This document shows positions 4,121 to 31,954 of a stretch of 64,000 nucleotides of DNA, one piece after another. This stretch comes from Candidatus Magasanikiibacteriota bacterium. Lineage in GTDB: Bacteria > Patescibacteriota > Patescibacteriia > Magasanikbacterales > 2-02-FULL-50-9b. A program made the translations under genes and the position numbers. The notes below the pieces were generated by a model that did not search any database, had not been told where the DNA came from, and was given only the letters and a program-made list of their open reading frames with translations. The first letter of the stretch is position 1. Each line of letters begins with the position of its first letter. The DNA is taken from contig CAITMK010000014.1 of NCBI GenBank assembly GCA_903893485.1, positions 66,144-130,143 of the forward strand. The letters run 5' to 3'.

Positions 4121-4122
4121 AC

Positions 4123-4823: not shown

Positions 4824-4833
4824 TTTAATCACT

Positions 4834-6363: not shown

Positions 6364-6414
6364 AGGGCGTTCTGGTATCAGAACTGCCTATAATAGCAGA
6401 GATTAGCGATTTTG

Positions 6415-9996: not shown

Positions 9997-10023
9997 GCTG
10001 CCCAGTATACCAAAGTTGGGAAT

Positions 10024-10054
10024 ATAAAAAAACTCCTTCTGAGGAGTTTTTTTA
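10024..10054 (-). terminator. Rho-independent terminator after the coiled-coil gene
   Basis: Hairpin AACTCCT-TCTG-AGGAGTT flanked by A and T runs, 5 nt past the stop at 10059. Confidence 0.5.
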
Positions 10055-10058
10055 TTGC

Positions 10059-10373
10059 CTACTGTGCAAATCGCAACTCAGCAATTTGTTCGGCGCGTTT
10101 TAAATAGCCGACAATTTCATCGTGAAAATTGAGATTATCGTTGCGAAACAGTTGCATTTCTGTGGTTAGACGCTGCTCAACGTCTGTTAAGCGTAAATCA
10201 ATCGCTTCAATCCGTGCACTCAACCTTACTTCAACATCGTCGATTTTGGCAGTCAAATTAGTTTCAACTTCATCAATCCTTGCCGTTAACCGATCTTCGA
10301 CATCTAAAACCTGCTGCGTGGCTTGCACCGCAACCGCGCCAATCATTTCAATAATATCACCCTCCTTGATCAT
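10059..10373 (-). CDS. Small coiled-coil protein with four tandem 11-residue repeats
   Basis: LTARIDEVETN / LTAKIDDVEVR / LSARIEAIDLR / LTDVEQRLTTE, with a matching 33-nt periodicity in the DNA. Confidence 0.5.
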   Translation of the reverse strand: MIKEGDIIEMIGAVAVQATQQVLDVEDRLTARIDEVETNLTAKIDDVEVRLSARIEAIDLRLTDVEQRLTTEMQLFRNDNLNFHDEIVGYLKRAEQIAELRFAQ

Positions 10374-10493
10374 AATAAAAAAATATGAATAATTATTTGC
10401 ACTATACCAAACGAAAAATTTCTGTCAAATAAAAAAACGCCGACAGCTCCCGTGGGGAAACTGCCGGACATGGGGCTTTGCGCGGTCGCGTGA

Positions 10494-10988
10494 TTAGCCG
10501 CCCTGCGCCTCTGCACTGCGCCGGATGAGAACCGCCTCGGTTGGAGGCATCCGCATCTCTTCGAGCAGCCGTTGCAGCGACACGTGGTTGATGCAATTCC
10601 ATGTGCTGTAATGGATCGCCACAATGCCGTAGTCGCGCACGCTCTGCACGACCTCCGCGTTTTCATCGACGACGACATTGACTTCAAGCTCCTGGCACAG
10701 CACCGCCTTCTTGGAATCGTCATCGACCACATGGACATTGATGAGCGACGCGGCGAAACCGTCGAGCCAATACTTGAGCCACTCCTGCAAGAGATCGGCG
10801 TCGAGCTGCTCGCGCCCCGGCTTGGTGACGAAAACAAGGTTAACTTGATGTGAGCGCACGGCCCACATCAGTGTCTCGATCGCTTTTGGAAAAAACGGCA
10901 CTTTGCCGAATCCCCCGCGTTCGAATGCCTCGATTTGCGCGCCGTTAAACAGCGCCAAAGTATTTGCCACACCAAATGCAATTCGCAT
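10494..10988 (-). CDS. Hypothetical protein (GC-elevated segment)
   Basis: ORF with a GGAGGG Shine-Dalgarno 5 nt before the internal ATG (MRIAFGV…). No recognisable domain. GC is clearly higher than in flanking host genes. Confidence 0.5.
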   Translation of the reverse strand: MRIAFGVANTLALFNGAQIEAFERGGFGKVPFFPKAIETLMWAVRSHQVNLVFVTKPGREQLDADLLQEWLKYWLDGFAASLINVHVVDDDSKKAVLCQELEVNVVVDENAEVVQSVRDYGIVAIHYSTWNCINHVSLQRLLEEMRMPPTEAVLIRRSAEAQGG

Positions 10989-11145
10989 GACACCCTCCAT
11001 GAGTTGTGAAACTCGAGAAAAAAGCATACCACAAAATGGCCCGAAAGTCAAGGGTAATAGCTGCTTTTTTGTTCAAAATATAAAAATAAAAACAGGCAGC
11101 AACTTTTTGCAAAGTGCTGCCCGGAGCGAGGACGACGCGATCGCG

Positions 11146-11901
11146 CTAATCGTCATACGCTACAGAAACCTTGGTTGAACTGAACTGCGCCTCGCGCTTC
11201 ATGTCCAGGATAAAGTCCACTGCCTCGCCGTTGCTGCGATACGAAAGCTCGGACTGGTTGCAATCTGCCACCGCGCGCAAACCATTTTGCACGGTCGTGC
11301 GCACCAGCAGGTTGGCATCCTTGGAATACTGGCCGTCGTTGATAACCTTCACACGGACCGTGGCGCCACGCTTGCCAAACACGCGGATCAGCGTTTCCGC
11401 GCCATCGTACGGACCTTTGGTAATTTGCCGCGGGCACATGTAATTGAGCACGTGCGGCGCATTATCCTTCGTCCATTCTGAGCGTGGAATCACCTGCGGA
11501 ATTTGCAACTCCGCAGACTTTTCGGACAAATGGAATGGCGCCCGCTCCGCATATTCCAGAAATTTCTCGAACGCGACATCTTGCGTCGCCGTGTCGGTTG
11601 GCGAGCATGCCATTTGCGCCGCCGTGCCGCCGTTGAACAGCTGCAATTCGCAGTACACGTCGTGGATCTGTTCTGCAGACGAGGCGGCCTCTGGAAGTCC
11701 AACCGCCACGGATGTCACCGCTTCAATTGCAGGCGTCGGGTCCGACGGCACAATGTTCGCGATGAGTTCCTGGCGATACACGATGCACGCAATGAGAACC
11801 GCCAACGCCGCAGAAATAAGCAGCGCGCGATCAACCTGCCGCGCGTTCCAAAACGACCGTCCGATTTCACTTACCGGAATTCCTTTTGGGAATTTTTTCA
11901 T
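11146..11901 (-). CDS. Hypothetical N-terminally membrane-anchored protein (GC-elevated segment)
   Basis: 251 aa, one N-terminal TM segment (ALLISAALAVLIACIVY). No recognisable domain. Confidence 0.55.
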   Translation of the reverse strand: MKKFPKGIPVSEIGRSFWNARQVDRALLISAALAVLIACIVYRQELIANIVPSDPTPAIEAVTSVAVGLPEAASSAEQIHDVYCELQLFNGGTAAQMACSPTDTATQDVAFEKFLEYAERAPFHLSEKSAELQIPQVIPRSEWTKDNAPHVLNYMCPRQITKGPYDGAETLIRVFGKRGATVRVKVINDGQYSKDANLLVRTTVQNGLRAVADCNQSELSYRSNGEAVDFILDMKREAQFSSTKVSVAYDD

Positions 11902-11929: not shown

Positions 11930-12370
11930 TTACCCGGGCACCATACCGGATTTTGGGGGTTTTGTCAATGGTGAGAGGGCCAAAAACTTTTGCATTTCGA
12001 TACAGACTTTTTCGTAGAGATTTTTTTCTGAGACGCGGATTGCGCAGAGACGCTGCGTGGCCCAAAGACGGAATTGCATGCCACGAACTGCCCGGAAATT
12101 CCGGACAGTTGGATTTCGCTCTAATTCACCCTCTTCGTACAGTTTCTGAACATGTTCAGAAACAGTGCGTTTATCTTTTTGAAAAAGATCGACCATTTGC
12201 ATAAGACTCAAACACACCGTTTCGTCCTGCAAACGCACCTGAACCTGCAGCGATCCATCGGCAGCTTCGTATAAAATAATTTGGTTTTGATGTTCCCCGC
12301 CCTGAGACAACATATTTTTAAAATTAAAATGGCATGCAAAAACTATGCCCGAACAAAAACCGAATGTCAA
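11930..12370 (-). pseudogene. RhuM-family (virulence-protein RhuM-like) gene remnant, internally deleted and C-terminally truncated
   Basis: N-terminus matches the RhuM family pattern (IILYEAADGSLQVQVRLQDETVCLSLMQMVDLFQKDKRTVSEHVQKLYEEGELE … NFR-AVRGMQFRLWATQRL). About 30 aa of the conserved middle (YNLD…GYRV) are missing, and the ORF ends about 200 aa early. Confidence 0.55.
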
Positions 12371-12547: not shown

Positions 12548-14464
12548 CTACTGCGGCGTGAACGTGAACTTCGCGGTGCCCTTCACGTAGCCGTTCAGGT
12601 TCTTCGGGCCAGAGATGCCGTCGAACCAGAGGCGCTGATTGGGCTGACCCGTGCCGCTGAAGCTGATCGCCGTCTGACCGCCTTGCAGGCAATCCGACGC
12701 CGTCATTTCCTTCGGCAAATCCGGCCCGCAATTGACGGTCTGCTGCAGCATCATGAGGATGCTGGTGGAAGGCGAAACCGTCTTGTCCGGCGCAATCGTG
12801 ACCGAGACCTTCACGCTTTGCGGCGCGCTGATCACGTACACTTGCTCCGGGCCAGTCGCGCCCGAAACCGTCATGCCGTCCGCGCACGTCCATTTGTCCA
12901 CCGTTTGCTTTCCGGCGGGCGCAGTGGTCGTGTCGACGTTTTTGCTAATGACGAGCGTGCCGCTGCCCGTGTAAGTAACGTAGACCACGTCGCTGCACAC
13001 ATCGCACGCGCCGCCTTCGTCGATCTGCAAGTTGCAGTTGTCGTCGAAGCCGTTGCAGACCTCCGGCGCATTCGGGTGGACGCTCGCCTTCGAGTCGTCG
13101 CAGTCCGTGTCGTCAAGGATCCACTTGCCCACGGGCGCGCATGCCAGCGTCGTCACGGCCGCGTTGCCGTAGCCGTCGCCATCGCCGTCCCAGTAAAGCG
13201 TCAACTTCACGCCCTCGTCGATCTGCTTGTCGCAGTTGTCGTCGAGGCCGTTGCAAACCTCCTTGGCGCCCGGGTAGATGGCGGCGTTGGTGTCGTCGCA
13301 GTCCGTCGAGTCGCTCACGTAGCCGGCCGGAGCCGAGCACGCTTGCTTGGTGCTGCTGAGGTTGCCGAACTTGTCGCCATCCGTGTCGGCGTAGTAGGTC
13401 GTCTGAACGCCCTCGTCGATCTGCTTGTCGCAGTTGTCGTCGAGGCCGTTGCAAACCTCCTTGGCGCCCGGGTAGATGGCGGCGTTGGTGTCGTCGCAGT
13501 CCGTCTTGCTCGTGACCTTGAAGTTCGCGTCTGCCGAGCACTGGCACGAACCGCTACCGGCGCCGTAAGTGTCACCGTCCACATCAGCGTAGAACCAGGT
13601 GCAGTTGAGCACGTTGCCTGCCGGATCGACGCTGCCATCGCAGTTGTCATCGACGCCCACCGTACTGCAATCGTCCATGATGCCCGGGTGAATCTTGGGA
13701 TCCAGGTCGTTGCAGTCATCGGAACTGGTCACGTAGTTGAGCGGCTCGGTGCAGCCCATCTTCGTGCTCGAGGAAAGGCCATGACCGTCGCCGTCGCCGT
13801 CGAAATAGAACGTCGTCTGGACGCCGTTGTCGATGACGGTGTCGCAGTCATTGTCCTTGCCGTCGCACGTTTCCTTGACCGGCAGACCCTGCGTGCACGT
13901 CGGATTGGGGTCCAGCGTGCCGTCCGGTTTGCATGCCAAAGCGTCGCAGGCGCATTCGCCGACGCCCACTTTGGTGCCCGGAAAGCTCGCCTTCGGCGGC
14001 GTCATGCACAAGAAGCGCGTGATGCCGTCGGTGGTTTCCAGCGGCACGGGAACCGAGTCCACGCACTTGCTGTTGGTCGAGGCCGCCACCGCCGCATCGC
14101 AGCCGCCGGACGAAGTGCTGAACGACGCGTCGTCGAGACCCAGCGGCGAAGCCGAGCAATCGAACGCCATCGCATCGAAGTTGTACGGGCAATCCGGCGC
14201 GAGCACGCACTTCTGGATGCTCTTGTTCCACGCCCACTTGGTGCGGTGAATCGGATCATCGGGCAGCGCGTCGCACAGCGTCTGGCTGATGGCCAGCTTG
14301 GCCGTGAGCGCGAACGATTGCGAGCCGAACGTCGCCGTCGGCGCTTGGGGCGCGGTTTTCACCGCATCGAGCACCGCAGAACCGCTCTGCGGTGCGGTCG
14401 GACCGGCACAGCCGATCAGACTTGCCAGCGCACAAAGCGCCAGCAAAGGGTTGAACTTCTTCAT
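12548..14464 (-). CDS. Secreted lipoprotein with tandem MopE-like putative metal-binding Cys/Asp repeats (C-x-GxDDNCDxxIDEG … DGDGxG)
   Basis: Signal peptide with lipobox LIGC. At least 5 repeats of the MopE-type motif (DCDDTNAAIYPGAKEVCNGLDDNCDKQIDEGV). GC about 60-65% with GC3-rich codons. 638 aa. Confidence 0.8.
   Translation of the reverse strand: MKKFNPLLALCALASLIGCAGPTAPQSGSAVLDAVKTAPQAPTATFGSQSFALTAKLAISQTLCDALPDDPIHRTKWAWNKSIQKCVLAPDCPYNFDAMAFDCSASPLGLDDASFSTSSGGCDAAVAASTNSKCVDSVPVPLETTDGITRFLCMTPPKASFPGTKVGVGECACDALACKPDGTLDPNPTCTQGLPVKETCDGKDNDCDTVIDNGVQTTFYFDGDGDGHGLSSSTKMGCTEPLNYVTSSDDCNDLDPKIHPGIMDDCSTVGVDDNCDGSVDPAGNVLNCTWFYADVDGDTYGAGSGSCQCSADANFKVTSKTDCDDTNAAIYPGAKEVCNGLDDNCDKQIDEGVQTTYYADTDGDKFGNLSSTKQACSAPAGYVSDSTDCDDTNAAIYPGAKEVCNGLDDNCDKQIDEGVKLTLYWDGDGDGYGNAAVTTLACAPVGKWILDDTDCDDSKASVHPNAPEVCNGFDDNCNLQIDEGGACDVCSDVVYVTYTGSGTLVISKNVDTTTAPAGKQTVDKWTCADGMTVSGATGPEQVYVISAPQSVKVSVTIAPDKTVSPSTSILMMLQQTVNCGPDLPKEMTASDCLQGGQTAISFSGTGQPNQRLWFDGISGPKNLNGYVKGTAKFTFTPQ
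13209..13505. repeat. Intragenic direct repeat: two identical 99-bp copies (13209-13307 and 13407-13505) with a 198-bp period
   Basis: Exact identity by direct comparison of the two stretches. They encode an identical 33-aa MopE-like motif twice. Confidence 0.85.
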
Positions 14465-14708
14465 CTTTGAAATCTCCTGTCAAAAAACACGATCGCTCTT
14501 TCGAGCCTCCCTCCCCACCGCGCACTCGCGCAGTAGGTAATTGTCGGCGCCGGGATAAAACGCCTGACGAATTCATCTCCTTATTGATGTCGTCAGGATT
14601 TTCATCTTTTAAAAAATAGGACCCCGGCAGCAGCAGCGTTCTTGCCACTGCTACCGGGTGAATCATTTCTCGTCTGATTCAGACGTTGCGCGGCTCGTTG
14701 GCCTGCGC

Positions 14709-16398
14709 TTACTTCTTGAACTTGGCGCACCAATCCACGACACCGCCTGGACCAAACATGTCCGGCAAAGCGATGTTGCTCTCGATGTCAAAGTCACCGG
14801 GACCCAGATCCACGAGCGGCACCAAAGCGCCGAGCGGATCTTGTACCGTCATGTACGGACCGCCAATCGCGTAGTGATCCTTGCCCTTGTTGAGCATGGA
14901 ATACGCGGTGCCGCCAAATTCGATCGGCGGAGTACCCTTGGCCGCGCCGACGTCGTACGCGTCACAAAACAGCTGCGCCGAGATCTTCACTTCGGGCGAG
15001 ATGCCCGAGATGTAGTTCGGAGCACCCGCCAGCTTGAAGTAGCCCCAGCTATTCCCGATAGTGGTCAGGATCATAGCATACGGCGCCGGCGCGTACAAGC
15101 CCATGATGTCCGAGCTTTCGCCCGTGCTCATCGTGAAAAACAGCGGCGTCCATTCACAGCCAACCTGCGAGTCGCAGGTGTCCAACGTCCAGTACTTCTG
15201 GTCGTTGCACTTGGCGGTGACCGTTGCGAAGGACCACGGAACAAACTGGCAGCCCAGCAGCGGCAGGCACGAATCGTCGGTGCACTTGTCGCCATCATCG
15301 CACGTCACGACCGTACCCTTGCAGGCAGCGGTCTTGTCGCAGATGTCGCCGTCTGTGCACAGATTGCCGTCCGTGCACGACTTGCCCACAATGGGCAGGT
15401 GCTTGAACACGCCGGTCTGCGGATCACACTTGGCGTCCTCCGTGCATTCGTTGCCGTCGTCCTCGAGCTTGGCCTCCGACAAGCACTTGCGCAGATCCGT
15501 ATCGCACGTCACCTGGATGCACAGATTGCCTTTGAATTGCGGCTGCGCGAGGCAGTCCGCATCCGTGTTGCAATCGTACGCCGGCAAACCTTCACAGGTG
15601 CCGGCCGTGCAAACGTCATTCTCCGTCGCCGGATTCCCGTCGTCGCACTTGCTGCCATCCTTCAGCTCCGCGGTCTGGCAGCCCAGCTTGGCGTCGCAGG
15701 AATCGGTCGTGCACGGGTTGCCGTCGTCGCACTTCAGGGTCGAACCTTTGCATGCGCCGACCGCACAAGTATCCGCTGTCGTGCATACGTTCCCGTCATC
15801 ACACGCCGCCGTGTTGTTCGCGTAGACGCAGCCCTTGGCTTTGTCGCACGAGTCATCGGTGCATGCGTTGCCGTCGTTGCAGGGCAACGTCGCGCCTTCG
15901 CACGAACCCGCCTTGCAGCTGTCGCCGGTGGTGCAGGCATCGCCGTCGTCGCACACGATTGCCGTGGCGATTGGTGACGCGACGCACTTGCCGAGCTTGG
16001 CATCACAGCTGCTGACGACGCACGGGTTGCTATTGTCGCAAACCACGGACACGCCCTTGCAGTAGCCAACGCCATCGCAGGCGTCGCCGGTGGTGCACGC
16101 GAGCTTGTCGTCGCACGCCGTGCCTTCCTTGGGATACGTCGCGCCTTTCGGCCGAACGCATTGCCCGGAAACGCACGTGAACTGGACATCGCATGTGGTC
16201 TTGTTCAGCGGCGCGCAATCCGGATTCGTTTCGCACAGCACGATTTGTGCCACAGAAACGTCCGGCGCGGGCGCCTGAACATCGACCTGAACGCTGCCGG
16301 CGTCCTCGGTGGGCGCGCTACCGCCCGAACCAGCTGCCTGCGTACAGCCCGCGACAATCGCGAACGGCACGCAGAGTTTGATCAAACGCGTGAACATG
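14709..16398 (-). CDS. Secreted lipoprotein with about 12 or more Myxococcota-type cysteine-rich disulfide repeats (C-x-DGN-x-CT-x-D-x-C)
   Basis: Probable start MFTRLIKLCVPFAIVAGC (lipobox VAGC). Repeats such as CDDGDACTTGDSC, CNDGNACTDDSC, CDDGNVCTTADTC, CDDGNPCTTDSC. C-terminal roughly 170 aa is non-repetitive. GC-rich. Confidence 0.8.
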
Positions 16399-16573
16399 AT
16401 AAACCTCCGAAACAAGTTGAGACACTGTTGGCACACAAGAAAAAGAGCCGAGGAGCAACCGCGAGAAATAACCGTGAGGAATCTCCCCGCAGATCAACCC
16501 CCGACGCCAAAGAATTTGGAGAGGGAGCGACATATGAGAGTATCACAATCCCGCAACAATGTCAAGCCTCTAA

Positions 16574-16628
16574 AATAAAAAAAGACCCCCGAAACCAACC
16601 GCGCGTGATGCGTTGTTGGTCCGGGGAG
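16574..16628 (-). terminator. Candidate rho-independent terminator downstream of the third island lipoprotein
   Basis: Imperfect GC-rich hairpin (CCCCGGACCAAC…GTTGGTTTCGGGG) followed on the minus strand by a T run of at least 8. Confidence 0.45.
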
Positions 16629-16679
16629 TCGGTTGTGGTATTGGGCGCCGGTCGGCGATGCAATACGAGGGGGTGACCG

Positions 16680-18032
16680 CTAGAAGAAGCGATCGAGGAT
16701 GCGGTAGGCGTCGCACGTAAGTGTGCCGAACATCGCCGTCTTGCCCGTACCGGCCGGCAACGTACCGTTGCTGATCGTGTACTGGTTCGGGACGATGTAG
16801 TCGACCGTCGTCACGTTGTTCGGGCCCGTGGTAAGGACCTGAAACGCGTGATTCGTGCCGACTTTCTTGGTTGCCGACGTGCAGCTTGAGCCGATGTAGC
16901 CGGGCGAGAAGTCGCCGGCCGCCCACTTGATGTAGAAGCCCGCGCCGTTCGCGCTGCTGTTCACCTTGCTGCACCACTTGTTGCTCACGCCGACCTGGGT
17001 CATGTTGAGCGAGTCGCCGTCCAAGGACCAGATGCCGCCGTACACGAACTCGCCGTTCACGGAAACGATCTGATCATCGGCCTGCACGCACACTTTGTAC
17101 TGGCCGCCGCTTTGCGCCGGCGTTCCGGTGTGCGAACACGTGATCTTGCTGGTGTCCGTGGTGGGCGTGGTCGTGCCGGTGCACTGGTCGAGCGTCGCGG
17201 CGTTGGCGTCATCGCAGAGGAAATCCGCGCTGACGGTGGGGTCAGTGGTCGGCGCGCAGCCGATCTGAATCCCGTTTTGCCACTGGCACATGCCTTTCAG
17301 CATGGCCTGCTTCTGGACGCCTTTCGCGCTGCAGTAGTACGTCGGCGAACCGTCGCACAAGCTGGGATCCGAGCAAGCGAACACGCCATTCAGCGCGTTG
17401 CACGCGCCGGTGAGCGAGTTGCAGACCTGGCCCGCCGGGCAGCTGTTTTGCGTGCAGCTTTGCGGCGCCGTGTTGGGAGTGTTGGTGCACTTGAAGGTGT
17501 TCCAATCCCCCGTGCACGAATCAGTCGTGCTCGGATCGTTGTCGCTGCAGCTGTAGGGCTGCGACGGCTGATTCGAGTCGTACTCGCAGTACTGCCCCGC
17601 GCCCGTGCCGAAGCACATGCCCGTGAAAAAGTACTGCGTGGCCACGCCGGCATCACAATGACGCGACGTCAGCTGACAGGTGACCCCGTCGCAGACGTGC
17701 GCCACTTTGTTGGGATCCACCTGCGGCACCGAGCACACGCCCGTGTCGCAAATCTGGTTCCCGGTGCACGTGCCGCACGAGCCGCCGCAGCCATCGCTGC
17801 CGCAGTCGTGCGTGCCGCACTTGGGCGTGCACGCGTCGGCCGAAGCCGTCGCGTCCGTGCCGTTGCTGGTGTCCGAGTTGCTCGCATCCGCCGCCGCGCA
17901 GCTGGCGCAGTCCGTGGACAAACCCACAATGGGCTGGTCGGCAGGCTGGTCGACCGGGATGGCGCAGCCGGTGAAACCGGTGGCGCAGACCAACGCACAC
18001 GCGATGGCCAGAAACTTCTTGACGTTCAACAT
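16680..18032 (-). CDS. Secreted Cys-rich lipoprotein (CGxxDCGxDGCGGSCGTC motif) with a C-terminal beta-rich lectin-like domain
   Basis: Start MLNVKKFLAIACALVCATGFTGC (lipobox FTGC). Many Cys in the N-terminal two thirds. C-terminal roughly 170 aa is Gly/Ser/Asn-rich and predicted beta-rich. Confidence 0.75.
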   Translation of the reverse strand: MLNVKKFLAIACALVCATGFTGCAIPVDQPADQPIVGLSTDCASCAAADASNSDTSNGTDATASADACTPKCGTHDCGSDGCGGSCGTCTGNQICDTGVCSVPQVDPNKVAHVCDGVTCQLTSRHCDAGVATQYFFTGMCFGTGAGQYCEYDSNQPSQPYSCSDNDPSTTDSCTGDWNTFKCTNTPNTAPQSCTQNSCPAGQVCNSLTGACNALNGVFACSDPSLCDGSPTYYCSAKGVQKQAMLKGMCQWQNGIQIGCAPTTDPTVSADFLCDDANAATLDQCTGTTTPTTDTSKITCSHTGTPAQSGGQYKVCVQADDQIVSVNGEFVYGGIWSLDGDSLNMTQVGVSNKWCSKVNSSANGAGFYIKWAAGDFSPGYIGSSCTSATKKVGTNHAFQVLTTGPNNVTTVDYIVPNQYTISNGTLPAGTGKTAMFGTLTCDAYRILDRFF

Positions 18033-18283
18033 GACAGACTCCTCAAGCAATAAGGCCGATTAGGCCGTGGGTGAAAAACAAACTGACACTGGAAAGGAAC
18101 GCAGAACTTCTGTGCGACGAATTACGTCGTAAACAAAAGCACTGAGTTCGCCTGACAAGCTGCGTGTTATGAAGGAGGGAGCATAACAGCTACTCGTCAG
18201 ACGAACTCAGCGCTCATGGCTTTTGTTGTCCGGGATGCTATTATCAGATGCTTTATATTAGTTGTCAAGAAACGTCCTGTGGA

Positions 18284-18340
18284 AAAAAATCTCCGGGGTG
18301 GTCGACAAGCGTTATTGCTTGCCGACCACCCCTTCGTTGT
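18284..18340 (-). terminator. Rho-independent terminator after the OMP gene
   Basis: Perfect 10-bp stem GGGGTGGTCG / CGACCACCCC followed on the minus strand by GGAGATTTTTTT. Confidence 0.5.
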
Positions 18341-18363
18341 TGCTCTTGCCGCCGGTTAGGTGA

Positions 18364-19335
18364 CTAGAAGCCGTACTGGATCCCGAACGTGACGCCGAGC
18401 ACCGGATCGAACTTGACGCCGTGGTCCAGGTTGCCCCGGAGGTCAAACGCGAAATTCGACTTGCCCATGAAAATCTCCGCACCCAGCGCCCCGCCGAACC
18501 GGTTTTCCGTCACATTGTGACTGAACCCGTTTTCAGCGATGCTGACCGCGTGGAAGCCGGCGTAGATCGCAAATTCGCGATGAAAATCGATCTTGGCCGC
18601 TGCCAGGTAATCGATCTCCGCGTGATTGTCGCCGCCGAAGGCCATGCGCACATCGAACTTGCCGTCCAGCCACTGGTGGCCGAACGATTCGATGCCGAGG
18701 CCAAAGCCACCGATGCCCGTCTGGTTCACGCCGCCGAAACCGGCGAGGATGAACTTCCACGAGGACGGCACGTTGGCGATCGGATTGACCCGGGGCGCCT
18801 GCGGCACGTACTGCTGCGGTTGCGGCTGCGGCGTGACCAGTTCCTTCCGGAGCTGCTTGAGCCCCGTCCACGCCGCCTGGGCGATGACCAAAGCCTCGCG
18901 AGCTTCGGACGCCGTCTGCAGCGTGTTGACCAGGATGCCGGCCTGCCGCGCCCGCATCAGCCGCAACGCGACGTCGTCGTCGTGATACTTGATCACTTCG
19001 ACGATGCGCGTGGCGGACACCACGCAACGGGGGTTGCGGAGCTGATCGTGAATCTTCTCGAGGGCGCTCACGCGCACGACGAGAGACGTGATCAGCTGCT
19101 GCGACAACCCGTTCGCACTCGCCTGCCCAGCCATCTGCTGGATCGTGGCGTTGCGCTCGGTCTTGGCCATGTCGGTCAACGTATCGACCGCTTTCGCCGC
19201 CTCCGCCCGCATCTCCGGAGAGAGCGGGCGATCGTCCGGCGCAGCGGGCGCCAAATTGACCTGCTGCGCAAACGCAGCCGGGGCCGAGACACAGAACATC
19301 AAGGTCGCCATCGCGACCGTCATCAACTTCTTCAT
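18364..19335 (-). CDS. Outer-membrane beta-barrel protein (signal peptide, C-terminal …GIQYGF)
   Basis: Cleavable signal (…SAPAAFAQQ). C-terminal about 150 aa show alternating hydrophobic beta-strand pattern ending in an aromatic-x-F terminus typical of BAM substrates. Confidence 0.65.
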   Translation of the reverse strand: MKKLMTVAMATLMFCVSAPAAFAQQVNLAPAAPDDRPLSPEMRAEAAKAVDTLTDMAKTERNATIQQMAGQASANGLSQQLITSLVVRVSALEKIHDQLRNPRCVVSATRIVEVIKYHDDDVALRLMRARQAGILVNTLQTASEAREALVIAQAAWTGLKQLRKELVTPQPQPQQYVPQAPRVNPIANVPSSWKFILAGFGGVNQTGIGGFGLGIESFGHQWLDGKFDVRMAFGGDNHAEIDYLAAAKIDFHREFAIYAGFHAVSIAENGFSHNVTENRFGGALGAEIFMGKSNFAFDLRGNLDHGVKFDPVLGVTFGIQYGF

Positions 19336-19588
19336 GACGAACTCCTACACAGTAAAGTGACCGCGAGGGCCACGAAAGAAACTACCAGTGAAAAGGGCGC
19401 GTGCTAAGTATCCGATCGGACACCTACCACTTCTGCTTTTGAGAGCATATCTGTACTGCCTAAAGCAACACGGACATGATCTTAAAATAATCGTCCTGGG
19501 GAGCGAAATCGTGGATTCGGCGGTTGCCTTATCACACTTCTTCGCTCCCCAAGGAGTTTGCGCCCCAGTCACTTAGGGGCATTTGGCG

Positions 19589-20275
19589 CTACGGCTGCCG
19601 CAGGAAGCCGTTCGCGCGCGCCTCGCCGTCGGCCCGCGCGCTCGCATACGCCTGATTCAGCGTGCGCAGCTCGCGGCACTGTGCCGGCGTCGGGTGCGGC
19701 TCGCCGTAGATCTGGCAGTCGCCGTCGCTCCGGGCAGCGCCGCGCTTGTCTTCGGACTTCGTGTGCGCTTTCGGGGCGGCGGGCTCGATCTTGATGACCT
19801 CGCCGTCGTCCTTCTTGTCGCCCGCGTCGTCGGACTTCACGTGTGCCTTGGCCTTGGCTTTCGCCTTGGCCGCCCACTCGCCCTTCCAGTTCTCCGTCGC
19901 GCCCTTGGTGGCGTCGTGGAGGCCCTTGGCGCCCAGGCAGTCCTGGTACGCAGCGCCGCACTTCGCGTTGGCCGCGTTGGCGAGTTCTTGCGCGCGCGCC
20001 TGGCAGATCTTGCCGCTCTCGCCGCAGTTGATGAACTCATGCGCCAAGATGTGCGCGACGAGATTCTTGCAGCTCGTCTGCACCTCCTCGCACGTCGAGG
20101 CCGTCGTCGGCGCCGGCACCGCAACCACCGCCGGCTTCGGCGGATCGTCGGTCGGCACTTTCACCGGGTCGACCTGCTTGGGGCAGTCCTTGCCGCAGGT
20201 CACCGTGGTGGTGCCGCACGCAGCAGCCGTCATCGCGACCAAAACCAGAACGCCAGAAACAAAAAGCTTCTTCAT
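19589..20275 (-). CDS. Secreted lipoprotein, hypothetical
   Basis: Signal plus lipobox (LVAMTAAAC). Cys pairs in the N-terminal half and a Lys/Ala/Asp-rich C-terminal half. GC-rich. Confidence 0.6.
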   Translation of the reverse strand: MKKLFVSGVLVLVAMTAAACGTTTVTCGKDCPKQVDPVKVPTDDPPKPAVVAVPAPTTASTCEEVQTSCKNLVAHILAHEFINCGESGKICQARAQELANAANAKCGAAYQDCLGAKGLHDATKGATENWKGEWAAKAKAKAKAHVKSDDAGDKKDDGEVIKIEPAAPKAHTKSEDKRGAARSDGDCQIYGEPHPTPAQCRELRTLNQAYASARADGEARANGFLRQP

Positions 20276-20545
20276 TGCTTGTGCCTCCCCAATCGGTTAC
20301 TACCGTGGGATCAGTTGACCTTCCAACAATACGAACACCCCAGTGGTGACGCACGTTGTCCAGCCAAATTCAGAAAACAAACTATTCTACCAACTAATTG
20401 TACGGAACTGGAACTGTTGCCCCACGAGATAGGCTTGTGGCCGTCTCAATGTGACTTAATACAATATCACACTTTCCTGGAAAAGTCAAGGGGGTGGGGG
20501 CCATTTAGACCCTCACCCCCAAGAAATGCAAAAAATTATTAAAAA

Positions 20546-21148
20546 TTAGCCAAAAATGCCGTGTTTATGGTGCGCCAAACTATAAATAAAGCTAACCGCT
20601 CCACCAAGCAGGAATCCTGCCACTGCAATTGCCAAAAAATTAGGCTTCTGTGGATACTGCGACGCAACTGGCGAATCAATAAGCCGGTAATCTGCCGCAT
20701 TAACCGCAAAGTCATTGCCCGTTCCACCCAGCACACCCGCAACCGTGCTCGCAATCGCAACGGCCTGCGCCTTATTGGTATGATACGCGGTAATTCCTAA
20801 AATGCCGGTATTATAGGTAACACTCGCATCAATGGTCTGAGACCAAAGCTTGCGGCGCTGCAGTTCGTCTGTTGGAAAATACGAAACATCAATCCCCGAC
20901 CCTGGCACGGCAATTACACGAGAAAAAAATTGACTCGTACCAACAACTTCCGCCAAATTTTGTGCGATACGCTCAGCCGCCTTGCTGCTGGTGTAAGGAT
21001 CAACTCCCGGCGTTGCGCGCGGTGTAATAAGTAATCGAGCTTCAGCGCCATACTTAAGTGGAAAAACCACCAACGCCACGAGACATGCAACAACGGCAAC
21101 CGCCAATCCGCTGCCGACTGACGTGTACAAAGAACGAGCGTAATTCAT
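20546..21148 (-). CDS. Putative polysaccharide chain-length determinant (Wzz/CpsC-like) bitopic membrane protein
   Basis: 201 aa from MNYARS. N-terminal TM and C-terminal TM flank a roughly 130-aa extracytoplasmic domain. The call is by topology and size only. Confidence 0.4.
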   Translation of the reverse strand: MNYARSLYTSVGSGLAVAVVACLVALVVFPLKYGAEARLLITPRATPGVDPYTSSKAAERIAQNLAEVVGTSQFFSRVIAVPGSGIDVSYFPTDELQRRKLWSQTIDASVTYNTGILGITAYHTNKAQAVAIASTVAGVLGGTGNDFAVNAADYRLIDSPVASQYPQKPNFLAIAVAGFLLGGAVSFIYSLAHHKHGIFG

Positions 21149-21149: not shown

Positions 21150-22208
21150 TTATTGAAGATGAGAAATTTTTGTAGTGAGTGGAACCGCGAGATCAATTGA
21201 TTTTCCGCCGCGCAGTACCGTAACGTGAAGCGTTCCGTCTGCAACCGCTGCCTGCACCAAAGGAAACAATTCGGTATCACCTTCAATGGATGATCCGCCA
21301 ATTGAGGTAATTATATCATCATCTTTCAAATCTGACGCGCCACGAGTTGGACGAAGTGTTTGAACTAAAAATCCTTGGGTGCTTGTGGTTGACTCAAATA
21401 CAAATGGTGAACGAATTGAATTTGCAACTCGCACCGGCAAACTTGCGCGCGTAATGGTGCCCGCCGTAAACACTGATTGAAAAATTGGTTTAACGGCGCT
21501 CGTTGGAATAATTACCAATCGATTATTTTGTGTTGTTGCAAAACCAACTAGTGTGCCCCGCACGGTGATCACCGGAGCGCCATCAGCACTGTGCGGCACA
21601 ATTGATTCAACCACGGCGCCGGCAAACGAAAGTGTATCCGCATATTCGTACGGGCATTTATCCGCAACACAAAGTGAAGTGTCTTGCAGTGTCACGGGCA
21701 ACGCGGTATCAGGCAACACCACAATCAGGCGTGAACCGCGCGCCATGTCTGCTAAATTTTCTTCGTCTAAAATATGTAAATTTTGCGCGTGCGTTTTAAT
21801 GAATGCCAAATTGGTTGCACCGTCGACGATTGTTTTTTCGATGGGCAAACTACCAACGCCGCGTACTAATAATTTTTTTCCGCGCACCGCACGTGCGTCC
21901 GCAATAAACCAACCGTCTGAGGTAATTGCAGTTGCATATGTTGCATCAGCCGCGCCCACCACCGAAGCCACACTTTGCGTTGCTTCCATTACCCGTGTTT
22001 CATCGATGCCATCAGGAGCCTGCTCAATACGCGTTTCATATTTTGTAGTCGCGGTGCTGCCATAACTGGCATACAATAAACTCGCCACAAAACCACTGAG
22101 CGCGCCAATTAAAATCATGGCAACAAAATAACCCGTTGCTGGATGTAACGTTTGTACATTTGTATCTTCTGAAGGAATATGTGGTGCGGTAGGTGTCATA
22201 GGAACCAA
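21150..22208 (-). CDS. Membrane-anchored PDZ-domain protein
   Basis: N-terminal TM. C-terminal PDZ-like segment (DIITSIGGSSIEGDTELFPLVQAAVADGTLHVTVLRGGKSIDL). Confidence 0.5.
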   Translation of the reverse strand: MVPMTPTAPHIPSEDTNVQTLHPATGYFVAMILIGALSGFVASLLYASYGSTATTKYETRIEQAPDGIDETRVMEATQSVASVVGAADATYATAITSDGWFIADARAVRGKKLLVRGVGSLPIEKTIVDGATNLAFIKTHAQNLHILDEENLADMARGSRLIVVLPDTALPVTLQDTSLCVADKCPYEYADTLSFAGAVVESIVPHSADGAPVITVRGTLVGFATTQNNRLVIIPTSAVKPIFQSVFTAGTITRASLPVRVANSIRSPFVFESTTSTQGFLVQTLRPTRGASDLKDDDIITSIGGSSIEGDTELFPLVQAAVADGTLHVTVLRGGKSIDLAVPLTTKISHLQ

Positions 22209-24238: not shown

Positions 24239-24691
24239 ATGCCAACTCTTGCAGAAAACAAATTTGCGCGCCGTGAATACGACGTTTTAGACGAGGTCGA
24301 AGCCGGTCTCGAATTGTTAGGCGTGGAAGTAAAACCAGTGCGCGCCGGCCAAATGAAGCTCAAAGGTTCGTTTGTAAAAATCGTTGGCGGCAACTTGGTT
24401 TTACTGAATGCGTTTATTCCCAAATATACGAAGGCCACCGGCGGCGTTGCTGAAAAATACGATCCGTACCGCACCCGCGCGCTGCTGGTTCACAAAAAAG
24501 AATTGAAAAAGATTTTTGACATGGTTGAGCAGCGCGGCGGCACCATCATTCCCCTTTCGGTGTATACGCGTGGCCGTTTGATTAAAATTAAAGTTGCCGT
24601 GGCACGTGGCCGCAAAATGCACGAGAAAAAAGAAATCTTAAAACAAAAAGATATTGCGCGCGATGCAGAGCGCGAAGCTAAACGTTATTAA
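24239..24691 (+). CDS. smpB: SsrA-binding protein SmpB
   Basis: ENKFARREYDVLDEVEAGLELLGVEVKPVRAGQMKLKGSFVKIVGGNLVLLNAFIPKY matches the SmpB core. 150 aa with a basic C-terminal tail. Confidence 0.85.
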   Translation: MPTLAENKFARREYDVLDEVEAGLELLGVEVKPVRAGQMKLKGSFVKIVGGNLVLLNAFIPKYTKATGGVAEKYDPYRTRALLVHKKELKKIFDMVEQRGGTIIPLSVYTRGRLIKIKVAVARGRKMHEKKEILKQKDIARDAEREAKRY

Positions 24692-27355: not shown

Positions 27356-27755
27356 GGGGATGACAGGCTTCGAGAAGAAAAAGAAGGCTCTAACGGGCGT
27401 GTCGGGAATGTACTGCTTCTCGCAAAACGCAGTACAAATCCAAGTGCAAACATCTTTGCACGTGCAAAAGCGACGATTGCTAACGCATTCGCTCCAACTT
27501 TTGTACCAGCATTCGCTTAATTGCCAATGCCATCGAACCAGACGTTCACGGTCCGGTATTCGGTGTTATTAAACAGTGAAGTAGAAACTCCGAGCGCTGC
27601 AAGTCGCGCGTAGTTCCGAAATCAATACTTGTCTTGTGCATTGGCTTGTTTGTCCAATTGATGGCCGCGCATAAGTAAAAATTAACTGGACTACACACGT
27701 AGGCCGCGAGTATCCTTTTTCTTTGACCCGGGTTCAATTCCCGGCATCTCCACCA
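27356..27755 (+). ncRNA. ssrA: tmRNA (transfer-messenger RNA)
   Basis: 5' GGGGATGACAGGCTTCGAG pairs with 3' CATCTCC-A-CCA to form an acceptor stem with a G3-U70 wobble (alanine identity). T-arm CCGGG-TTCAATT-CCCGG. Internal tag ORF …GCT AAC GCA TTC GCT CCA ACT TTT GTA CCA GCA TTC GCT TAA. About 400 nt. smpB lies 2.7 kb upstream. Confidence 0.85.
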
Positions 27756-27903
27756 CTGAATTTTATTTTTTTGTTTGTTTCGGAGACGTGTCAGTTTGGC
27801 CAGCGCCAAACTGCACTTACTCTCGGCGCGCCATTTTTGCCTTCGGCAAAAAAACCGGCTGGCGCGCCTGCGAGATACTCCTCTACAAACAAAAAAATAA
27901 AAT

Positions 27904-28452
27904 TTGCCTATCCTTATCACCTACTTCGTCCACGGCACCACTTTGGACAATGAACAAGAAATTTCATCCGGCTGGTCAGACGCAGAGCTTTCCGCACTCG
28001 GCATTGAACAATCACACAAATTAAAAAATCTCACCGCCGATAAAACTTTCGACGCAATTTTTTGTTCGGACTTACAGCGCGCTATCGACACGGCACACAT
28101 CGCATTTGGCGATGGCCCCGCGCCCATCATCCACGACGCACGCCTGCGCGAATGCAACTACGGTACCTACAACGGCCAGCCCTCTGAAATCGTGGAACCG
28201 CTCCAAGAAAAAATGATCACCGAAAAATTCCCTGACGGTGAAAGTTACGAAGACGTCGGACATCGCATCTCGGATTTTTTACAATTCCTAAAACAAAACT
28301 ACGAAGGAAAACATATCGCGATCGTCGCGCACAAAGCGCCGCAGCTTGCGCTCGACGTATTACTCACCAGCAAAACCTGGGGCCAAGCATTCACAGAGGA
28401 TTGGCGAAAAATAAAAGCGTGGAAACCCGGTTGGGAATATCAACTTCTGTAA
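27904..28452 (+). CDS. Histidine phosphatase superfamily (phosphoglycerate-mutase-like) protein, with non-canonical VHG in place of RHG
   Basis: ITYFVHGTTLDNE … AIVAHKAPQLAL resemble the RHGxT and second-His motifs of branch-1 histidine phosphatases, but Arg is replaced by Val. Confidence 0.5.
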   Translation: MPILITYFVHGTTLDNEQEISSGWSDAELSALGIEQSHKLKNLTADKTFDAIFCSDLQRAIDTAHIAFGDGPAPIIHDARLRECNYGTYNGQPSEIVEPLQEKMITEKFPDGESYEDVGHRISDFLQFLKQNYEGKHIAIVAHKAPQLALDVLLTSKTWGQAFTEDWRKIKAWKPGWEYQLL

Positions 28453-28554
28453 AAAATTTGTGGATAAAAAAACACGCCCACCCGCCCCGCCATTACAGCA
28501 AGACAAGGTGAACGTCGTAACATGCGTTTCATTGCTGCATGTCAGAGCACATAG

Positions 28555-29175
28555 CTATAGTGAGGAGCGCCGCCAAAACTGCACCTGACCGCGCTCCTGT
28601 AAGAACCGCATGAATTCATCGCTGTGCGGCTCGTTCGACAACTCGTAACCCAGATCGCCAAAAATCGATGGTCCGCTGGGGCAAACGAGAGGCGCCGGTG
28701 CGTAACCTTTGACGAGGCTCGTGAACGTGTTGAATTCGATTGTTACCAGCCCGTCGCAAACAGCAAATTTCACATTACCGCTCAATCCGCCGGACTCATC
28801 CTTTTGAATTCTGCCCACTTCAAGTTCGGGCGGCCGCAGAGCTACAATCACGTGACGCATGTCACCTGCAGTCATACTAGCGATGACGACTTTCCCGCCG
28901 ACCGACGCGGACCGCAGCGCACGCTGCAGCACGTTGAAGCCGACCACCTCGTTCACGCGCGCCAGTTCAGCGCTTCCCCCGAGTTGCTGAACGGTCCGTA
29001 CGGCCTCTCGCGCAGATCGACGTTCGCGCAGTGTACGCCACAACTTACTTATACCAAGTGGATTTAGAAAATAGTTCTGGAAAAACATCGAGATCGGCGT
29101 CGTGAATTCGATAAACCAAAATCGCAACGCTAGCCGCTGCTCATCACCAAGGATCGTTTTAAGCCATCGCCACAT
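28555..29175 (-). CDS. Hypothetical protein (GC-elevated block)
   Basis: 206-aa ORF with clearly higher GC than the neighbours. No domain recognised. Confidence 0.45.
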   Translation of the reverse strand: MWRWLKTILGDEQRLALRFWFIEFTTPISMFFQNYFLNPLGISKLWRTLRERRSAREAVRTVQQLGGSAELARVNEVVGFNVLQRALRSASVGGKVVIASMTAGDMRHVIVALRPPELEVGRIQKDESGGLSGNVKFAVCDGLVTIEFNTFTSLVKGYAPAPLVCPSGPSIFGDLGYELSNEPHSDEFMRFLQERGQVQFWRRSSL

Positions 29176-29445
29176 GAGATTCTCCTTGCAAATTCAGAAA
29201 AAACATACCATCTTTTTACAAAGATGTCAACCTTGACAAAATCAATTTTCAATGCTTAAATACGAACGGCGTAATCAACGCTCACAACAAACAGACATTC
29301 GCTCTCACAGGAGATCCCAATGGCAAAGAAGAAAGCGCAGGGTCGCAAGCCCTGCATTCCGGTCAACGTCAGCTTTGACCGCAAACTGTCGCTGAAAGAA
29401 TAGGCCGCCATTTTCAGCCTCCCGCACACGCCAACGACCGAAAAG

Positions 29446-29661
29446 GTGGTGCGTGCGCTGTTCGTTGCCAATGGCGACGGCTACGCGCGCGAAATTCTGG
29501 ACGGCACGTGGAGTCGTGCGATGCAGCTCAACCGGCTGCTCATCAAGCACGGCTTGCCGTACCGCGTGCGGAGCTACCCGCTTTCGGAACTGGAGGCTCG
29601 CAAGCGCTACGACGGCTACGCGATTTCACAAGAAGGGCTCACGCTCGGCATTGTCATGTGA
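29446..29661 (+). CDS. Hypothetical small protein; in frame with the upstream 27-codon ORF (29320-29403) across a single TAG
   Basis: The ORF MAKKKAQGRKPCIPVNVSFDRKLSLKE-TAG is in the same frame as MVRALFVANGDGYAREILDG…. 29446-29320 = 126. Confidence 0.3.
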   Translation: MVRALFVANGDGYAREILDGTWSRAMQLNRLLIKHGLPYRVRSYPLSELEARKRYDGYAISQEGLTLGIVM

Positions 29662-29689
29662 ATCACCAACAAACCCAATGGAGGGCATC

Positions 29690-30319
29690 ATGCCGAAACT
29701 CGAAAAAATTCTCGGGGCGGCGGTGCCGCTCCTGACACTCGGCGCTTCGGTGCCACTGCTCATTGGCGGATGGCAACATCCGATCGAAATCAATTTGGCC
29801 GCGTACACGCTGTGGATCATGCTGGCAGCAATGCTCGCATACTCTATGTGGGCGCAGCACCAACCAACGTGGCGCATGATGCTTGGCTTTTTGCTCGGCA
29901 ACGTGAGCATGGTGACGCTTGGGCTGGTACGCGGCGGATACACATTCAACCTCGGCACATCTGAACTCATCGTGCTGTTCGGCATGGTACTCACCGTGGT
30001 CGTGTGGCTCACGGCTAGGCAAATCACCAGCTCAAGCAACCCGCGCATCCTGCTTTTGGGCGGAGTCACGATCGACGTGATCACCTACTACCCGCTGTTC
30101 AAGCAGTACCTCATGCAACACGAACCACCAACGGCGTGGATGAAGCTCGGCTGGTGCATGCAACTCACGGGCATAACGATTAACCTGTTCGTCGTGGAAC
30201 GCATTGTGCAAAAAATTCGGTATCACGAAAAGTCTTTGCCGAAGATTCTCGAAGAGTCGGCATTTTCGCTCGAGTGCTGCATTTTCATCTCGATGCTTCT
30301 GTGGCTGATCAACACGTAA
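29690..30319 (+). CDS. Hypothetical polytopic membrane protein
   Basis: Start MPKLEKILGAAVPLL. About 6 TM helices. Confidence 0.5.
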   Translation: MPKLEKILGAAVPLLTLGASVPLLIGGWQHPIEINLAAYTLWIMLAAMLAYSMWAQHQPTWRMMLGFLLGNVSMVTLGLVRGGYTFNLGTSELIVLFGMVLTVVVWLTARQITSSSNPRILLLGGVTIDVITYYPLFKQYLMQHEPPTAWMKLGWCMQLTGITINLFVVERIVQKIRYHEKSLPKILEESAFSLECCIFISMLLWLINT

Positions 30320-30391
30320 CAACCGCGTGCGGCGCACCGCAACAAACCCAATCTCACGGCTCGCAAAGCGTGGGGGCGGGTCTTTTTTTAT

Positions 30392-30449
30392 AAAAAAATC
30401 CCGCACCGCGAGTCACCAATTTCTGTGACATCCAAGCGGTGCGGGATTA
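30392..30449 (-). terminator. Rho-independent terminator (12-bp stem ATCCCGCACCGC / GCGGTGCGGGAT) downstream of the 30464-30865 gene
   Basis: Perfect 12-bp inverted repeat with a T run of at least 7 on the minus strand. An A run on the plus side could also serve the convergent plus-strand gene. Confidence 0.4.
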
Positions 30450-30463
30450 AAATTTCTAACGAC

Positions 30464-30865
30464 CTACGAAACCAATGCGCACGGATGCAGCGTGAACCAA
30501 AACGTCAAATCCTTTTTCAGGTTCGCCACGAACTCCACGATGAATGCTTCCAGAAAAGCGTAATTCCGCGGCGTCCGCTCCTTTGGCAACGCCTGCTCAA
30601 ACCGCTCGCTCAGCATGCAAATCAGCACGAACTTTGCCGTGTCCATGTTCGGCTGTACGAGCACCAACGGGTAGTTGAAGCCCTGTTCAACGTAACTCAT
30701 CAGGGTTTCCGTGTCCAAATCCTTCGGGCGCTCGATAGCATATACCTCCATCTGCCGTTCAAGCGCCTGGGGCACGGACGAGTACGCATGTGCCAGCGTC
30801 AACACTTCCTTCAAATAACCTTCCAGTTCCGCTTCGATCACTCGAGCCGTATCTGCGTGTGACAT
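30464..30865 (-). CDS. Hypothetical protein (GC-elevated block)
   Basis: Start MSHADTARV. 133 aa, no domain recognised. Confidence 0.45.
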   Translation of the reverse strand: MSHADTARVIEAELEGYLKEVLTLAHAYSSVPQALERQMEVYAIERPKDLDTETLMSYVEQGFNYPLVLVQPNMDTAKFVLICMLSERFEQALPKERTPRNYAFLEAFIVEFVANLKKDLTFWFTLHPCALVS

Positions 30866-31014
30866 AAATCCTACCTCGCGTGCCGGTCCGTTGGCTCGCA
30901 GCCACAATCTTATTTCAAAAAATCAGATTTAGCAAAAAATGTCAATATAAAAATAGGCAGCAGATGAGTCGCATCTACTGCCCAGATTGTCCTCCCGCGT
31001 TCGCGATTAGGCAA

Positions 31015-31860: not shown

Positions 31861-31954
31861 GTTCCCCTCCGAGATGAATGCCTTTTGCAAGCCTAACAAA
31901 ATGGCACGTGCTTGTCTAGCGTTTTTTATATATAATGAATCGAATTCAAAATAT

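Follow-up and report, generated by a model that had tools for sequence, protein, structure and literature searches.

In a 64,000-nucleotide stretch of contig CAITMK010000014.1 (GenBank assembly GCA_903893485.1, Candidatus Magasanikiibacteriota bacterium; hereafter the window), the minus-strand gene at 18364..19335 encodes a 323-residue protein that, judging from structural models, very probably folds and works like the small eight-stranded outer-membrane protein (OMP) barrels of the OmpA/OmpX class. Its host is an ultra-small bacterium of the Candidate Phyla Radiation (CPR/Patescibacteria), a group treated as monoderm (PMC8871954; bioRxiv 10.1101/2021.05.31.446380), and the gene stands in a GC-rich cassette at a locus whose content varies widely among related genomes. 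On balance, and with a modest lean, we favor the view that the cassette is a resident, hypervariable surface module in which the target protein, embedded in a membrane by its barrel, anchors a helical stalk at the cell surface. The fold class is already known, and it is the sequence family, the domain order and the conserved presence in CPR genomes that are new. A reading of the sequence alone (hereafter the sequence-only reading) had previously taken this gene to encode an OMP in an otherwise monoderm-looking genome, and had seen in this a sign that the island is foreign or mis-binned.

The open reading frame (ORF) begins with ATG, ends with the stop codon at 18364-18366 and has the limits given by the sequence-only reading. 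A Shine-Dalgarno sequence, AGGAG, is found 7 nt upstream of the ATG (19342..19346, minus strand) and an intrinsic terminator hairpin, a 16-bp stem followed by a T-run, lies directly 3′ of the gene (18295..18332, minus strand). The GC content at third codon positions (GC3) of this frame is 0.86, and an overlapping 328-aa plus-strand ORF was dismissed as an Arg-rich antisense artefact of high GC. We conclude that the ORF is a real, intact gene for a predicted exported two-domain protein. Residues 1-23 (19267..19335), with MKK, a hydrophobic core and AFA↓QQ, read by inspection as a signal peptidase I signal peptide, as had been claimed, and the AxA↓QQ cleavage site is kept in P0003, the single homologue described below. 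Residues 40-166 (18838..19218) form a coiled-coil-like N-terminal domain of four predicted helices (AlphaFold2 model, DSSP assignment; predicted local distance difference test score, pLDDT, 42-65) with an α-type hydrophobic moment of z = 2.4 and an RVSALE motif that is invariant between the target and P0003. A Pro/Gln-rich linker, residues 167-192 (18760..18837), has pLDDT <50 and no secondary structure, and residues 193-323 (18367..18759), ending TFGIQYGF, make up the predicted barrel.

AlphaFold2, given a 2-sequence alignment for the full-length protein, returned four long helices (40-166), an unstructured linker (167-192) and eight strands joined by short turns (193-322), with an overall pLDDT of 52. 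Modeled alone, the C-terminal domain again gave eight strands, with pLDDT 70.4 and a predicted template-modeling score (pTM) of 0.61, and in the model these would close into an antiparallel barrel of 8 transmembrane strands, as in the OmpA/OmpX class. A Foldseek search of the PDB with this domain placed the OmpA transmembrane domain first (E 4e-5, TM 0.64), followed by OmpX, OprF, Ail and NspA; in the viral library the matches were phage-encoded OMP barrels, and matches in the two libraries were OMP barrels only. The surface chemistry agrees with the model. With strand limits taken from the model and the more hydrophobic face of each strand assigned as outward, the mean Kyte-Doolittle value is +1.96 for the outward face and −0.86 for the inward face, charged residues occupy 0/52 outward and 17/51 inward positions, and 15 aromatics point outward against 3 inward. 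None of 5000 within-strand shuffles (0/5000) matched this contrast, and the period-2 hydrophobic moment of the region has z = 3.2. The amphipathic C-terminal region proposed by the sequence-only reading is present, with eight predicted strands, but is 131 rather than about 150 residues long. When the target register is projected onto P0003, which provides an independent test, the polarity is retained (+1.26 versus −0.38), with charged residues at 3/50 outward and 14/51 inward positions.

OMPs carry a C-terminal β-signal with the consensus polar-x-G-x-x-aromatic-x-Phe. The last eight residues of the target, T-F-G-I-Q-Y-G-F-COOH, fit this consensus, bearing out the terminal-Phe signature that had been noted from ...GIQYGF, and P0003 ends in ...MEVRF. 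A Sec signal peptide and a C-terminal β-signal of the form G-x-x-Y-x-F, both identified here by reading the sequence, are shared with the small outer-membrane barrels of clan MBB, namely the OmpA/OprF N-domain, OmpX/Ail/Lom, NspA, OmpW and PagL (PF13505, PF01389, PF06316), as are the hydrophobic, aromatic exterior and the charged lumen. However, the target has no significant sequence match to these proteins. It also differs in domain order, since in OmpA and OprF the barrel is N-terminal and precedes a peptidoglycan-binding domain whereas in the target it is C-terminal and follows the helical domain, and in its host, a CPR bacterium with no known outer membrane; to our knowledge no β-barrel assembly machinery (BAM) is known in the CPR.

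The order of a periplasm-side module, a stalk and a C-terminal barrel is that of OmpM/SLH-porins and of Thermotoga Omp-alpha, which tether the outer membrane to peptidoglycan in diderm members of the Terrabacteria, the supergroup that includes the CPR (bioRxiv 10.1101/2021.05.31.446380). In contrast to OmpM/SLH-porins, the target has eight strands in 131 residues and not a large porin, shows no sequence similarity to them, and has no detected SLH domain; indeed, neither SLH, OmpA_C nor any other Pfam domain was found in residues 24-175. Helicobacter Hop adhesins and trimeric autotransporters likewise combine a signal peptide and a helical N-terminal domain with a small C-terminal barrel anchor that ends in Phe. 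Autotransporter barrels, however, have 12 strands (or 3 x 4) and Hop barrels use an N-terminal strand; the models of the target show eight strands per monomer, an unstructured Pro/Gln-rich linker and no adjoining helix to span a pore. It is unlikely that a passenger could be exported through a closed eight-stranded barrel whose lumen is filled and charged; the stalk therefore probably remains on the cis side.

Among 1.84 billion representative proteins, searched exhaustively with HMMER, there was a single true homologue, P0003, a protein of likewise 323 aa that is 28% identical to the target over its full length and shares the signal peptide, helical domain, barrel and terminal Phe. HMMER also matched P0002, a repeat protein of 3747 aa resembling a Bacteroidota type-IX-secretion substrate, but only over the linker and first hairpin, and this match was set aside as spurious. 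A word-indexed homologue search recovered only the query and its profile version added only P0003, while a scan of GTDB genomes with the target and a viral scan with the family profile returned nothing. PHROGs and PADLOC, searched with the target and its neighbors, gave nothing significant for the target. P0003 has a sub-threshold match to PF13505 (OMP_b-brl; E 2e-3, 18.7 bits versus a cut-off of 28.7). As far as sequence comparison reaches, this is a very small, undescribed family of two detectable members, and the target is not a demonstrable sequence member of any curated family.

P0003 is encoded on a 3-kb contig, L005, from an unrelated sequencing run. L005 opens within a Wzz-like gene, of whose product it encodes the last 165 residues (GC3 0.50; 76% identical to the product of window gene 20546..21148), and continues with a 196-aa Cys-rich lipoprotein (GC3 0.94), P0003 (GC3 0.90), a conserved intergenic element and the start of another lipoprotein. 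The 196-aa lipoprotein is weakly homologous (E 4e-6) to the 228-aa protein found at the same position in the window, and a hairpin of differing sequence takes the place of the terminator. Between the window and L005 the cassette proteins share just 25-28% identity, close to the point where similarity ceases to be detectable, compared with 76% for the flank. The target and P0003, the two known family members, occupy one and the same locus in two related CPR genomes, directly 3′ of a PDZ/Wzz-like gene pair. In the window this pair, which belongs to the host flank, consists of a Wzz/polysaccharide co-polymerase (PCP)-like membrane protein (20546..21148, minus strand; Pfam GNVR E 2.7e-4, below the gathering score), our synteny anchor, and a 349-aa PDZ-domain protein (21150..22199, minus strand), whose gene is upstream of the Wzz-like gene in all relatives.

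Using the Wzz-like protein as an anchor, we found further relatives (contigs L029-L033; Wzz-like proteins 57-61% identical) in which GC content rises abruptly to 60-67% behind the PDZ and Wzz-like genes and the ORFs there have GC3 0.75-0.81. In three more distant relatives, GC-rich coding sequence likewise starts directly behind this flanking gene. The GC-rich stretches of the five related CPR contigs (L005 500-3093, L029 3900-4545, L031 2700-4886, L032 10600-12264 and L033 6300-7934) have 60-69% GC and GC3 0.75-0.94 and encode unrelated or barely related secreted or membrane proteins; the locus downstream of the PDZ/Wzz-like pair is clade-wide, hypervariable and GC-rich. The second GC-rich gene of L031 (3682-4689), in the syntenic position, encodes a 335-aa protein with a signal peptide, a long coiled coil and a β-rich C-terminal 135 aa of about eight amphipathic segments (period-2 moment z = 2.8). 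Neither BLASTP nor hhalign detected similarity between this protein and the target, so we refer to it as an analogue only; either extreme divergence from a common ancestor or convergence may lie behind the resemblance.

In the window the cassette comprises five consecutive minus-strand genes (12548-20275), the target and four Cys-rich, lipobox-bearing lipoproteins. The first gene encodes the 228-aa lipoprotein (19589..20275; lipobox TAAAC↓G, GC3 0.90) and is followed by the target, a 450-aa lipoprotein (16680..18032; FTGC↓A, GC3 0.88), a 562-aa lipoprotein with Dicty_CTDC Cys-rich repeats (14709..16397; VAGC↓T, GC3 0.79) and a 638-aa lipoprotein with four MopE-type Cys/Asp repeats (12548..14464; LIGC↓A, GC3 0.85). 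Each gene has its own upstream spacer of 244-331 nt with 49-53% GC. Promoter-like sites are found 5′ of the 228-aa and 450-aa genes, and terminator-like hairpins 3′ of the target and the 562-aa gene. The cassette adjoins a Wzy/glycosyltransferase family 4 (GT4) polysaccharide cluster, and there is an abrupt jump in GC content.

The foreign origin proposed by the sequence-only reading finds clear backing in composition. GC3 is 0.79-0.90 in cassette genes versus 0.31-0.52 in host genes, and codon preferences are inverted: the island uses AAG for Lys at 0.84 (host 0.19), TTC for Phe at 0.77 (host 0.14) and ATC for Ile at 0.84 (host 0.21), and only 4% of its codons end in A, versus 25% in the host. 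Cassette coding sequence has 61-68% GC, cassette intergenic sequence 46-53% and a host spacer (9997-10493) 42%. The preferences for G-ending codons and for CGC, GGC, CCG and CTG track GC bias and not tRNA-matching optima, and translational selection was rejected as the cause of the high GC3. Measured against the classical description of a genomic island, the cassette deviates in composition and codon usage but carries no mobility signature, and it is not absent from relatives. No tRNA gene and no convincing flanking direct repeats were found beside it, and the island-associated proteins scanned included no integrase, phage or defense families. Integron (attC) and diversity-generating retroelement (DGR) explanations were likewise discarded, as no integrase, reverse transcriptase, attC-like repeat or template/variable repeat (TR/VR) pair was seen. 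Like the hypervariable metagenomic islands that lie beside O-antigen or capsule genes (Wzx/Wzy/Wzz), the cassette is placed between Wzz-like and Wzy/GT4 genes and shows variable content, conserved flanks and contig breaks. Metagenomic islands are, however, usually GC-poorer than their genome, whereas here GC3 is 0.75-0.94 in every relative examined and there is no integrase, tRNA or flanking repeat. The part of the foreign-origin claim that does not stand is a simple recent insertion, given that L005 has a cassette at the same locus with proteins of 25-28% identity.

The host genes of the window place it in the CPR, since its U32 peptidase and that of ‘Candidatus Magasanikiibacteriota bacterium LacPavin_0920_WC57_MAG_45_8’ share 88% identity. 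Outside the island, the window has about 45% GC and encodes an extracytoplasmic function (ECF) sigma factor with a DUF5667 protein, three GT4 glycosyltransferases, a Wzy_C protein, an AI-2E transporter, SmpB, a P-type ATPase, a DUF5666 protein and the U32 peptidase. The envelope features that had been taken to indicate a single membrane are also present. A sortase (55883-56479) neighbors a 532-aa ice-binding-like/DUF7507 protein that ends in LPNTG, a hydrophobic stretch and KGKEILASRR, and a giant 1942-aa surface protein has PA14, BNR and PG_binding_1 domains, the last in keeping with the peptidoglycan binding assigned to it. The lineage is in keeping with the description of the host as monoderm-type. 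In the literature we found no report of OMP-type barrels in the CPR, and nothing on the source samples.

That the cassette is physically part of this genome is established by contigs of independent assemblies from other samples, which are 99.97-100% identical to the window and span both junctions. L001 covers 22255-18249, from the PDZ gene through the target, L035 covers 32199-20748, and L038, a 38.8-kb contig, covers 20704-1146 and extends through the complete island as far as the Wzy, GT4, sigma-factor and DUF5667 genes, with one 100-N scaffold gap in the MopE repeats. Identical sequence is present in at least 5 samples. Because independent assemblies reproduce the island and both junctions, a chimeric assembly is excluded, and because the gene shares its contig with host genes, the mis-binning suggested by the sequence-only reading is irrelevant.

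The interpretation that we favor, a resident surface module with the target as its barrel anchor, would run as follows. The protein has two domains, a stalk of about 130 aa that is coiled-coil-like and, beyond the Pro/Gln linker, a putative eight-stranded transmembrane barrel of the OmpA/OmpX/NspA class. It would be exported by Sec, after which the barrel would insert into a lipid bilayer without a cognate BAM. In vitro, OmpA, OmpX, PagP and other small eight-stranded barrels can fold into bilayers unaided. Candidate destinations of the barrel are an unrecognised outer layer, a partner's outer membrane, vesicles and the cell's own membrane on its outer face. The module may be a rapidly evolving surface or partner-contact set beside envelope polysaccharide genes, in which selection would have kept the stalk-plus-barrel architecture. 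We infer that the cassette ultimately came from a high-GC diderm lineage, to which its composition, OMP fold, lipoproteins and Cys-rich motifs all point, and that it has since become resident in this CPR lineage and is maintained there by selection. Several observations weigh against this interpretation. The barrel model is built on 2 sequences (pLDDT 70) and the stalk is modeled with low confidence. Pfam and NCBIfam gave no match to the target, even for the isolated domain at E up to 10, and phmmer/hmmsearch profile searches of the PDB with the target gave nothing significant. None of BamA, LptD, TolC and Lol was found among the ~40 proteins scanned within the window. The L031 analogue has a 10-residue extension past its last strand, and a strictly terminal Phe is hence not universal at the locus. 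Finally, GC3 of ~0.9 in both diverged copies is hard to square with long residence in a 45% GC genome. Synonymous sites between the window and L005 copies must be saturated. Independent imports would presuppose a donor pool that has escaped sampling as well as a common integration site, and long residence would presuppose a process that actively biases GC. It is conceivable, but rather unlikely in our view, that GC3 is held at 0.75-0.94 by some local mechanism, for instance repeated exchange of cassettes or GC-biased gene conversion, at a locus where a coiled-coil stalk joined to an OMP-type eight-stranded barrel recurs, and that the barrel, if functional, resides in a CPR outer lipid layer or a partner's outer membrane without canonical BAM.

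A credible though unlikely reading is that a recent transfer from a high-GC diderm, for instance a Myxococcota-like one, brought the gene in as passive cargo with no working role in its monoderm recipient. It would account for a codon usage that is the inverse of the host's and for the diderm character of the fold, β-signal and lipoproteins. Moreover, a Cys-rich motif of a neighboring lipoprotein recurs in a protein from a contig of 71% GC on which a sigma-54 activator is also encoded. However, a related CPR genome has a cassette at the same locus with the architecture fully kept at 25-28% identity, L029-L033 are GC-rich there too, and no donor-side homologue was found among the 1.84 billion representatives. 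The intact ORFs with consensus promoters, AGGAG Shine-Dalgarno sites and terminators, and the identical sequence in at least 5 samples, also argue against it. It is improbable that this CPR clade has an unrecognised outer lipid layer in which the target, like OmpM, Lpp or OmpA, would act as a structural OMP or as a tether made up of coiled coil and barrel. The stalk-then-barrel order puts the stalk in cis, on a periplasm-like side, as in OmpM-type tethers (bioRxiv 10.1101/2021.05.31.446380), the target is conserved at a single locus beside envelope polysaccharide genes, and its neighbors are lipoproteins; but the window proteins scanned include no outer-membrane biogenesis gene, CPR cells imaged to date are described as monoderm (PMC8871954), sortase/LPXTG display is present, and the target has no SLH or OmpA_C peptidoglycan-binding domain. 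We hold it to be decidedly improbable that the target is a secreted attachment or effector protein whose barrel enters the outer membrane of a diderm partner while the stalk bridges to the CPR cell. Most CPR bacteria live as obligate epibionts (background cited in bioRxiv 10.1101/2025.02.28.640651). The uncharged barrel exterior, the perfect β-signal, the Sec signal and a hypervariable locus, as expected of partner-contact proteins, would suit such a role. The case for it is purely inferential, however, and we know of no precedent for insertion in trans of a monomeric OmpA-class barrel. A soluble eight-stranded barrel (lipocalin, avidin or YceI-like) or another β-rich secreted domain is very improbable, given an outward face with no charge in 52 positions and 15 aromatics, a charged lumen where a soluble barrel would have a polar exterior around a hydrophobic ligand pocket, top structural matches that are all membrane barrels, and the C-terminal β-signal. 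An assembly chimera or mis-binned GC-rich segment from another organism would fit the abrupt GC jump and the break of several assemblies at 20704-20748, but is hardly credible when L001, L035 and L038 together span the PDZ gene to the target, 32199-20748, and 20704 through the island into the Wzy, GT4 and sigma-factor genes, and when L005 likewise joins a CPR Wzz-like gene to a homologous GC-rich cassette.

Current scenarios of outer-membrane loss within the Terrabacteria treat the CPR as monoderms. An OMP-type barrel at a fixed locus in two CPR genomes, deeply diverged and with an intact β-signal, could be a relic or an import put to BAM-independent use. Alternatively, the same barrel could be evidence for an unrecognised outer lipid layer or a tool for engaging a diderm partner. 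That five adjacent genes have inverse codon usage and that relatives show it at the same locus also bears on the calling of ‘foreign DNA’ in the curation of metagenome-assembled genomes (MAGs).

An element of ~160 nt (window 18129-18268; L005 2705-2869) in the spacer that separates the target from the next lipoprotein gene is 85% identical at the nucleotide level between the two genomes, compared with 25-28% identity in the flanking proteins. It consists of a near-consensus sigma-70 promoter, TTGACA-17-GATAAT (11/12 positions; 18240..18268, minus strand), conserved in L005, followed by a 35-bp RNA hairpin with the loop CUCCCUCCUU (18172-18181) and then the U-run UUUUGUUU (hairpin and run 18129..18215, minus strand), upstream of the lipoprotein gene. 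The hairpin has a minimum free energy of −61 kcal/mol (z = −6.5), and of the stem pairs that differ between the window and L005 5/5 remain paired, two through compensatory changes and three through one-sided wobble changes, with 0 broken. The CUCCCUCCUU loop looks like an anti-Shine-Dalgarno sequence. No Rfam family matches the element, and a viral scan with the RNA motif and a JGI metagenome scan with a 30-mer of the hairpin returned nothing. The element is probably either a cassette small RNA or a leader transcription attenuator of the downstream lipoprotein gene.

Among the other cassette products, the 450-aa lipoprotein is an orphan whose matches share only a short Cys-rich motif, CxPxCxxxxCGxDGCGGSCGxC (residues 60-130). 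This motif is repeated in a protein of contig L028 (10001-11536), a 71% GC contig with a sigma-54 activator and FG-GAP proteins, and the match hints at the kind of lineage that may have supplied the Cys-rich modules. The 638-aa gene contains three tandem 198-nt units, 65-88% identical (12965-13505), and the 100-N scaffold gap of L038 falls here. At the left edge of the cassette, a small low-GC ORF (11930-12370, minus strand) encodes 146 aa when read from a TTG, and 127 aa in other assemblies; the N-terminal part of its product has no Pfam match but may resemble island-associated proteins of the RhuM family.

The independent assemblies differ in several details. Three contigs from two samples (L035, L036 and L038) end or start within 20704-20748, inside the Wzz-like gene, which suggests a branch in the assembly graph and possibly alternative downstream cassettes in the population. 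In L038, positions 163-7017 (window ~13700-20540), the gene caller put the island on the wrong strand and reported antisense ORFs including one of 328 aa, and the real proteins are therefore absent from the protein set of that sample; such wrong-strand calling is a hazard for database-based counts of homologues. L038 and L039 were considered as alternative island content and rejected, since their alignment is colinear with the window and the odd gene list reflects the antisense calls and the 100-N gap. Positions 1-94 of L003, which are GC-rich and have no match in the window, join at the GCCGACGGCGAGGCG repeat inside the 228-aa gene and probably represent a local mis-join or a variant.

Elsewhere in the window, a transfer-messenger RNA gene (27356-27755, plus strand) scores 125 bits with Rfam and was missed by ARAGORN, and SmpB is encoded at 24239-24691. 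The genes just 3′ of ssrA (28555-29175, 29453-30319 and 31015-31899) have GC3 0.58-0.70 and no Pfam match, and region 27900-31900 is a candidate for a second island, with ssrA as its classical target. Single genes with GC3 0.58-0.73 are found at 10494-11051, 11146-11901, 41222-41821, 42012-42791, 53511-54119 and 59035-59814. Against a typical GC3 of 0.31-0.52, these genes make the contig a mosaic in composition outside the main island as well.

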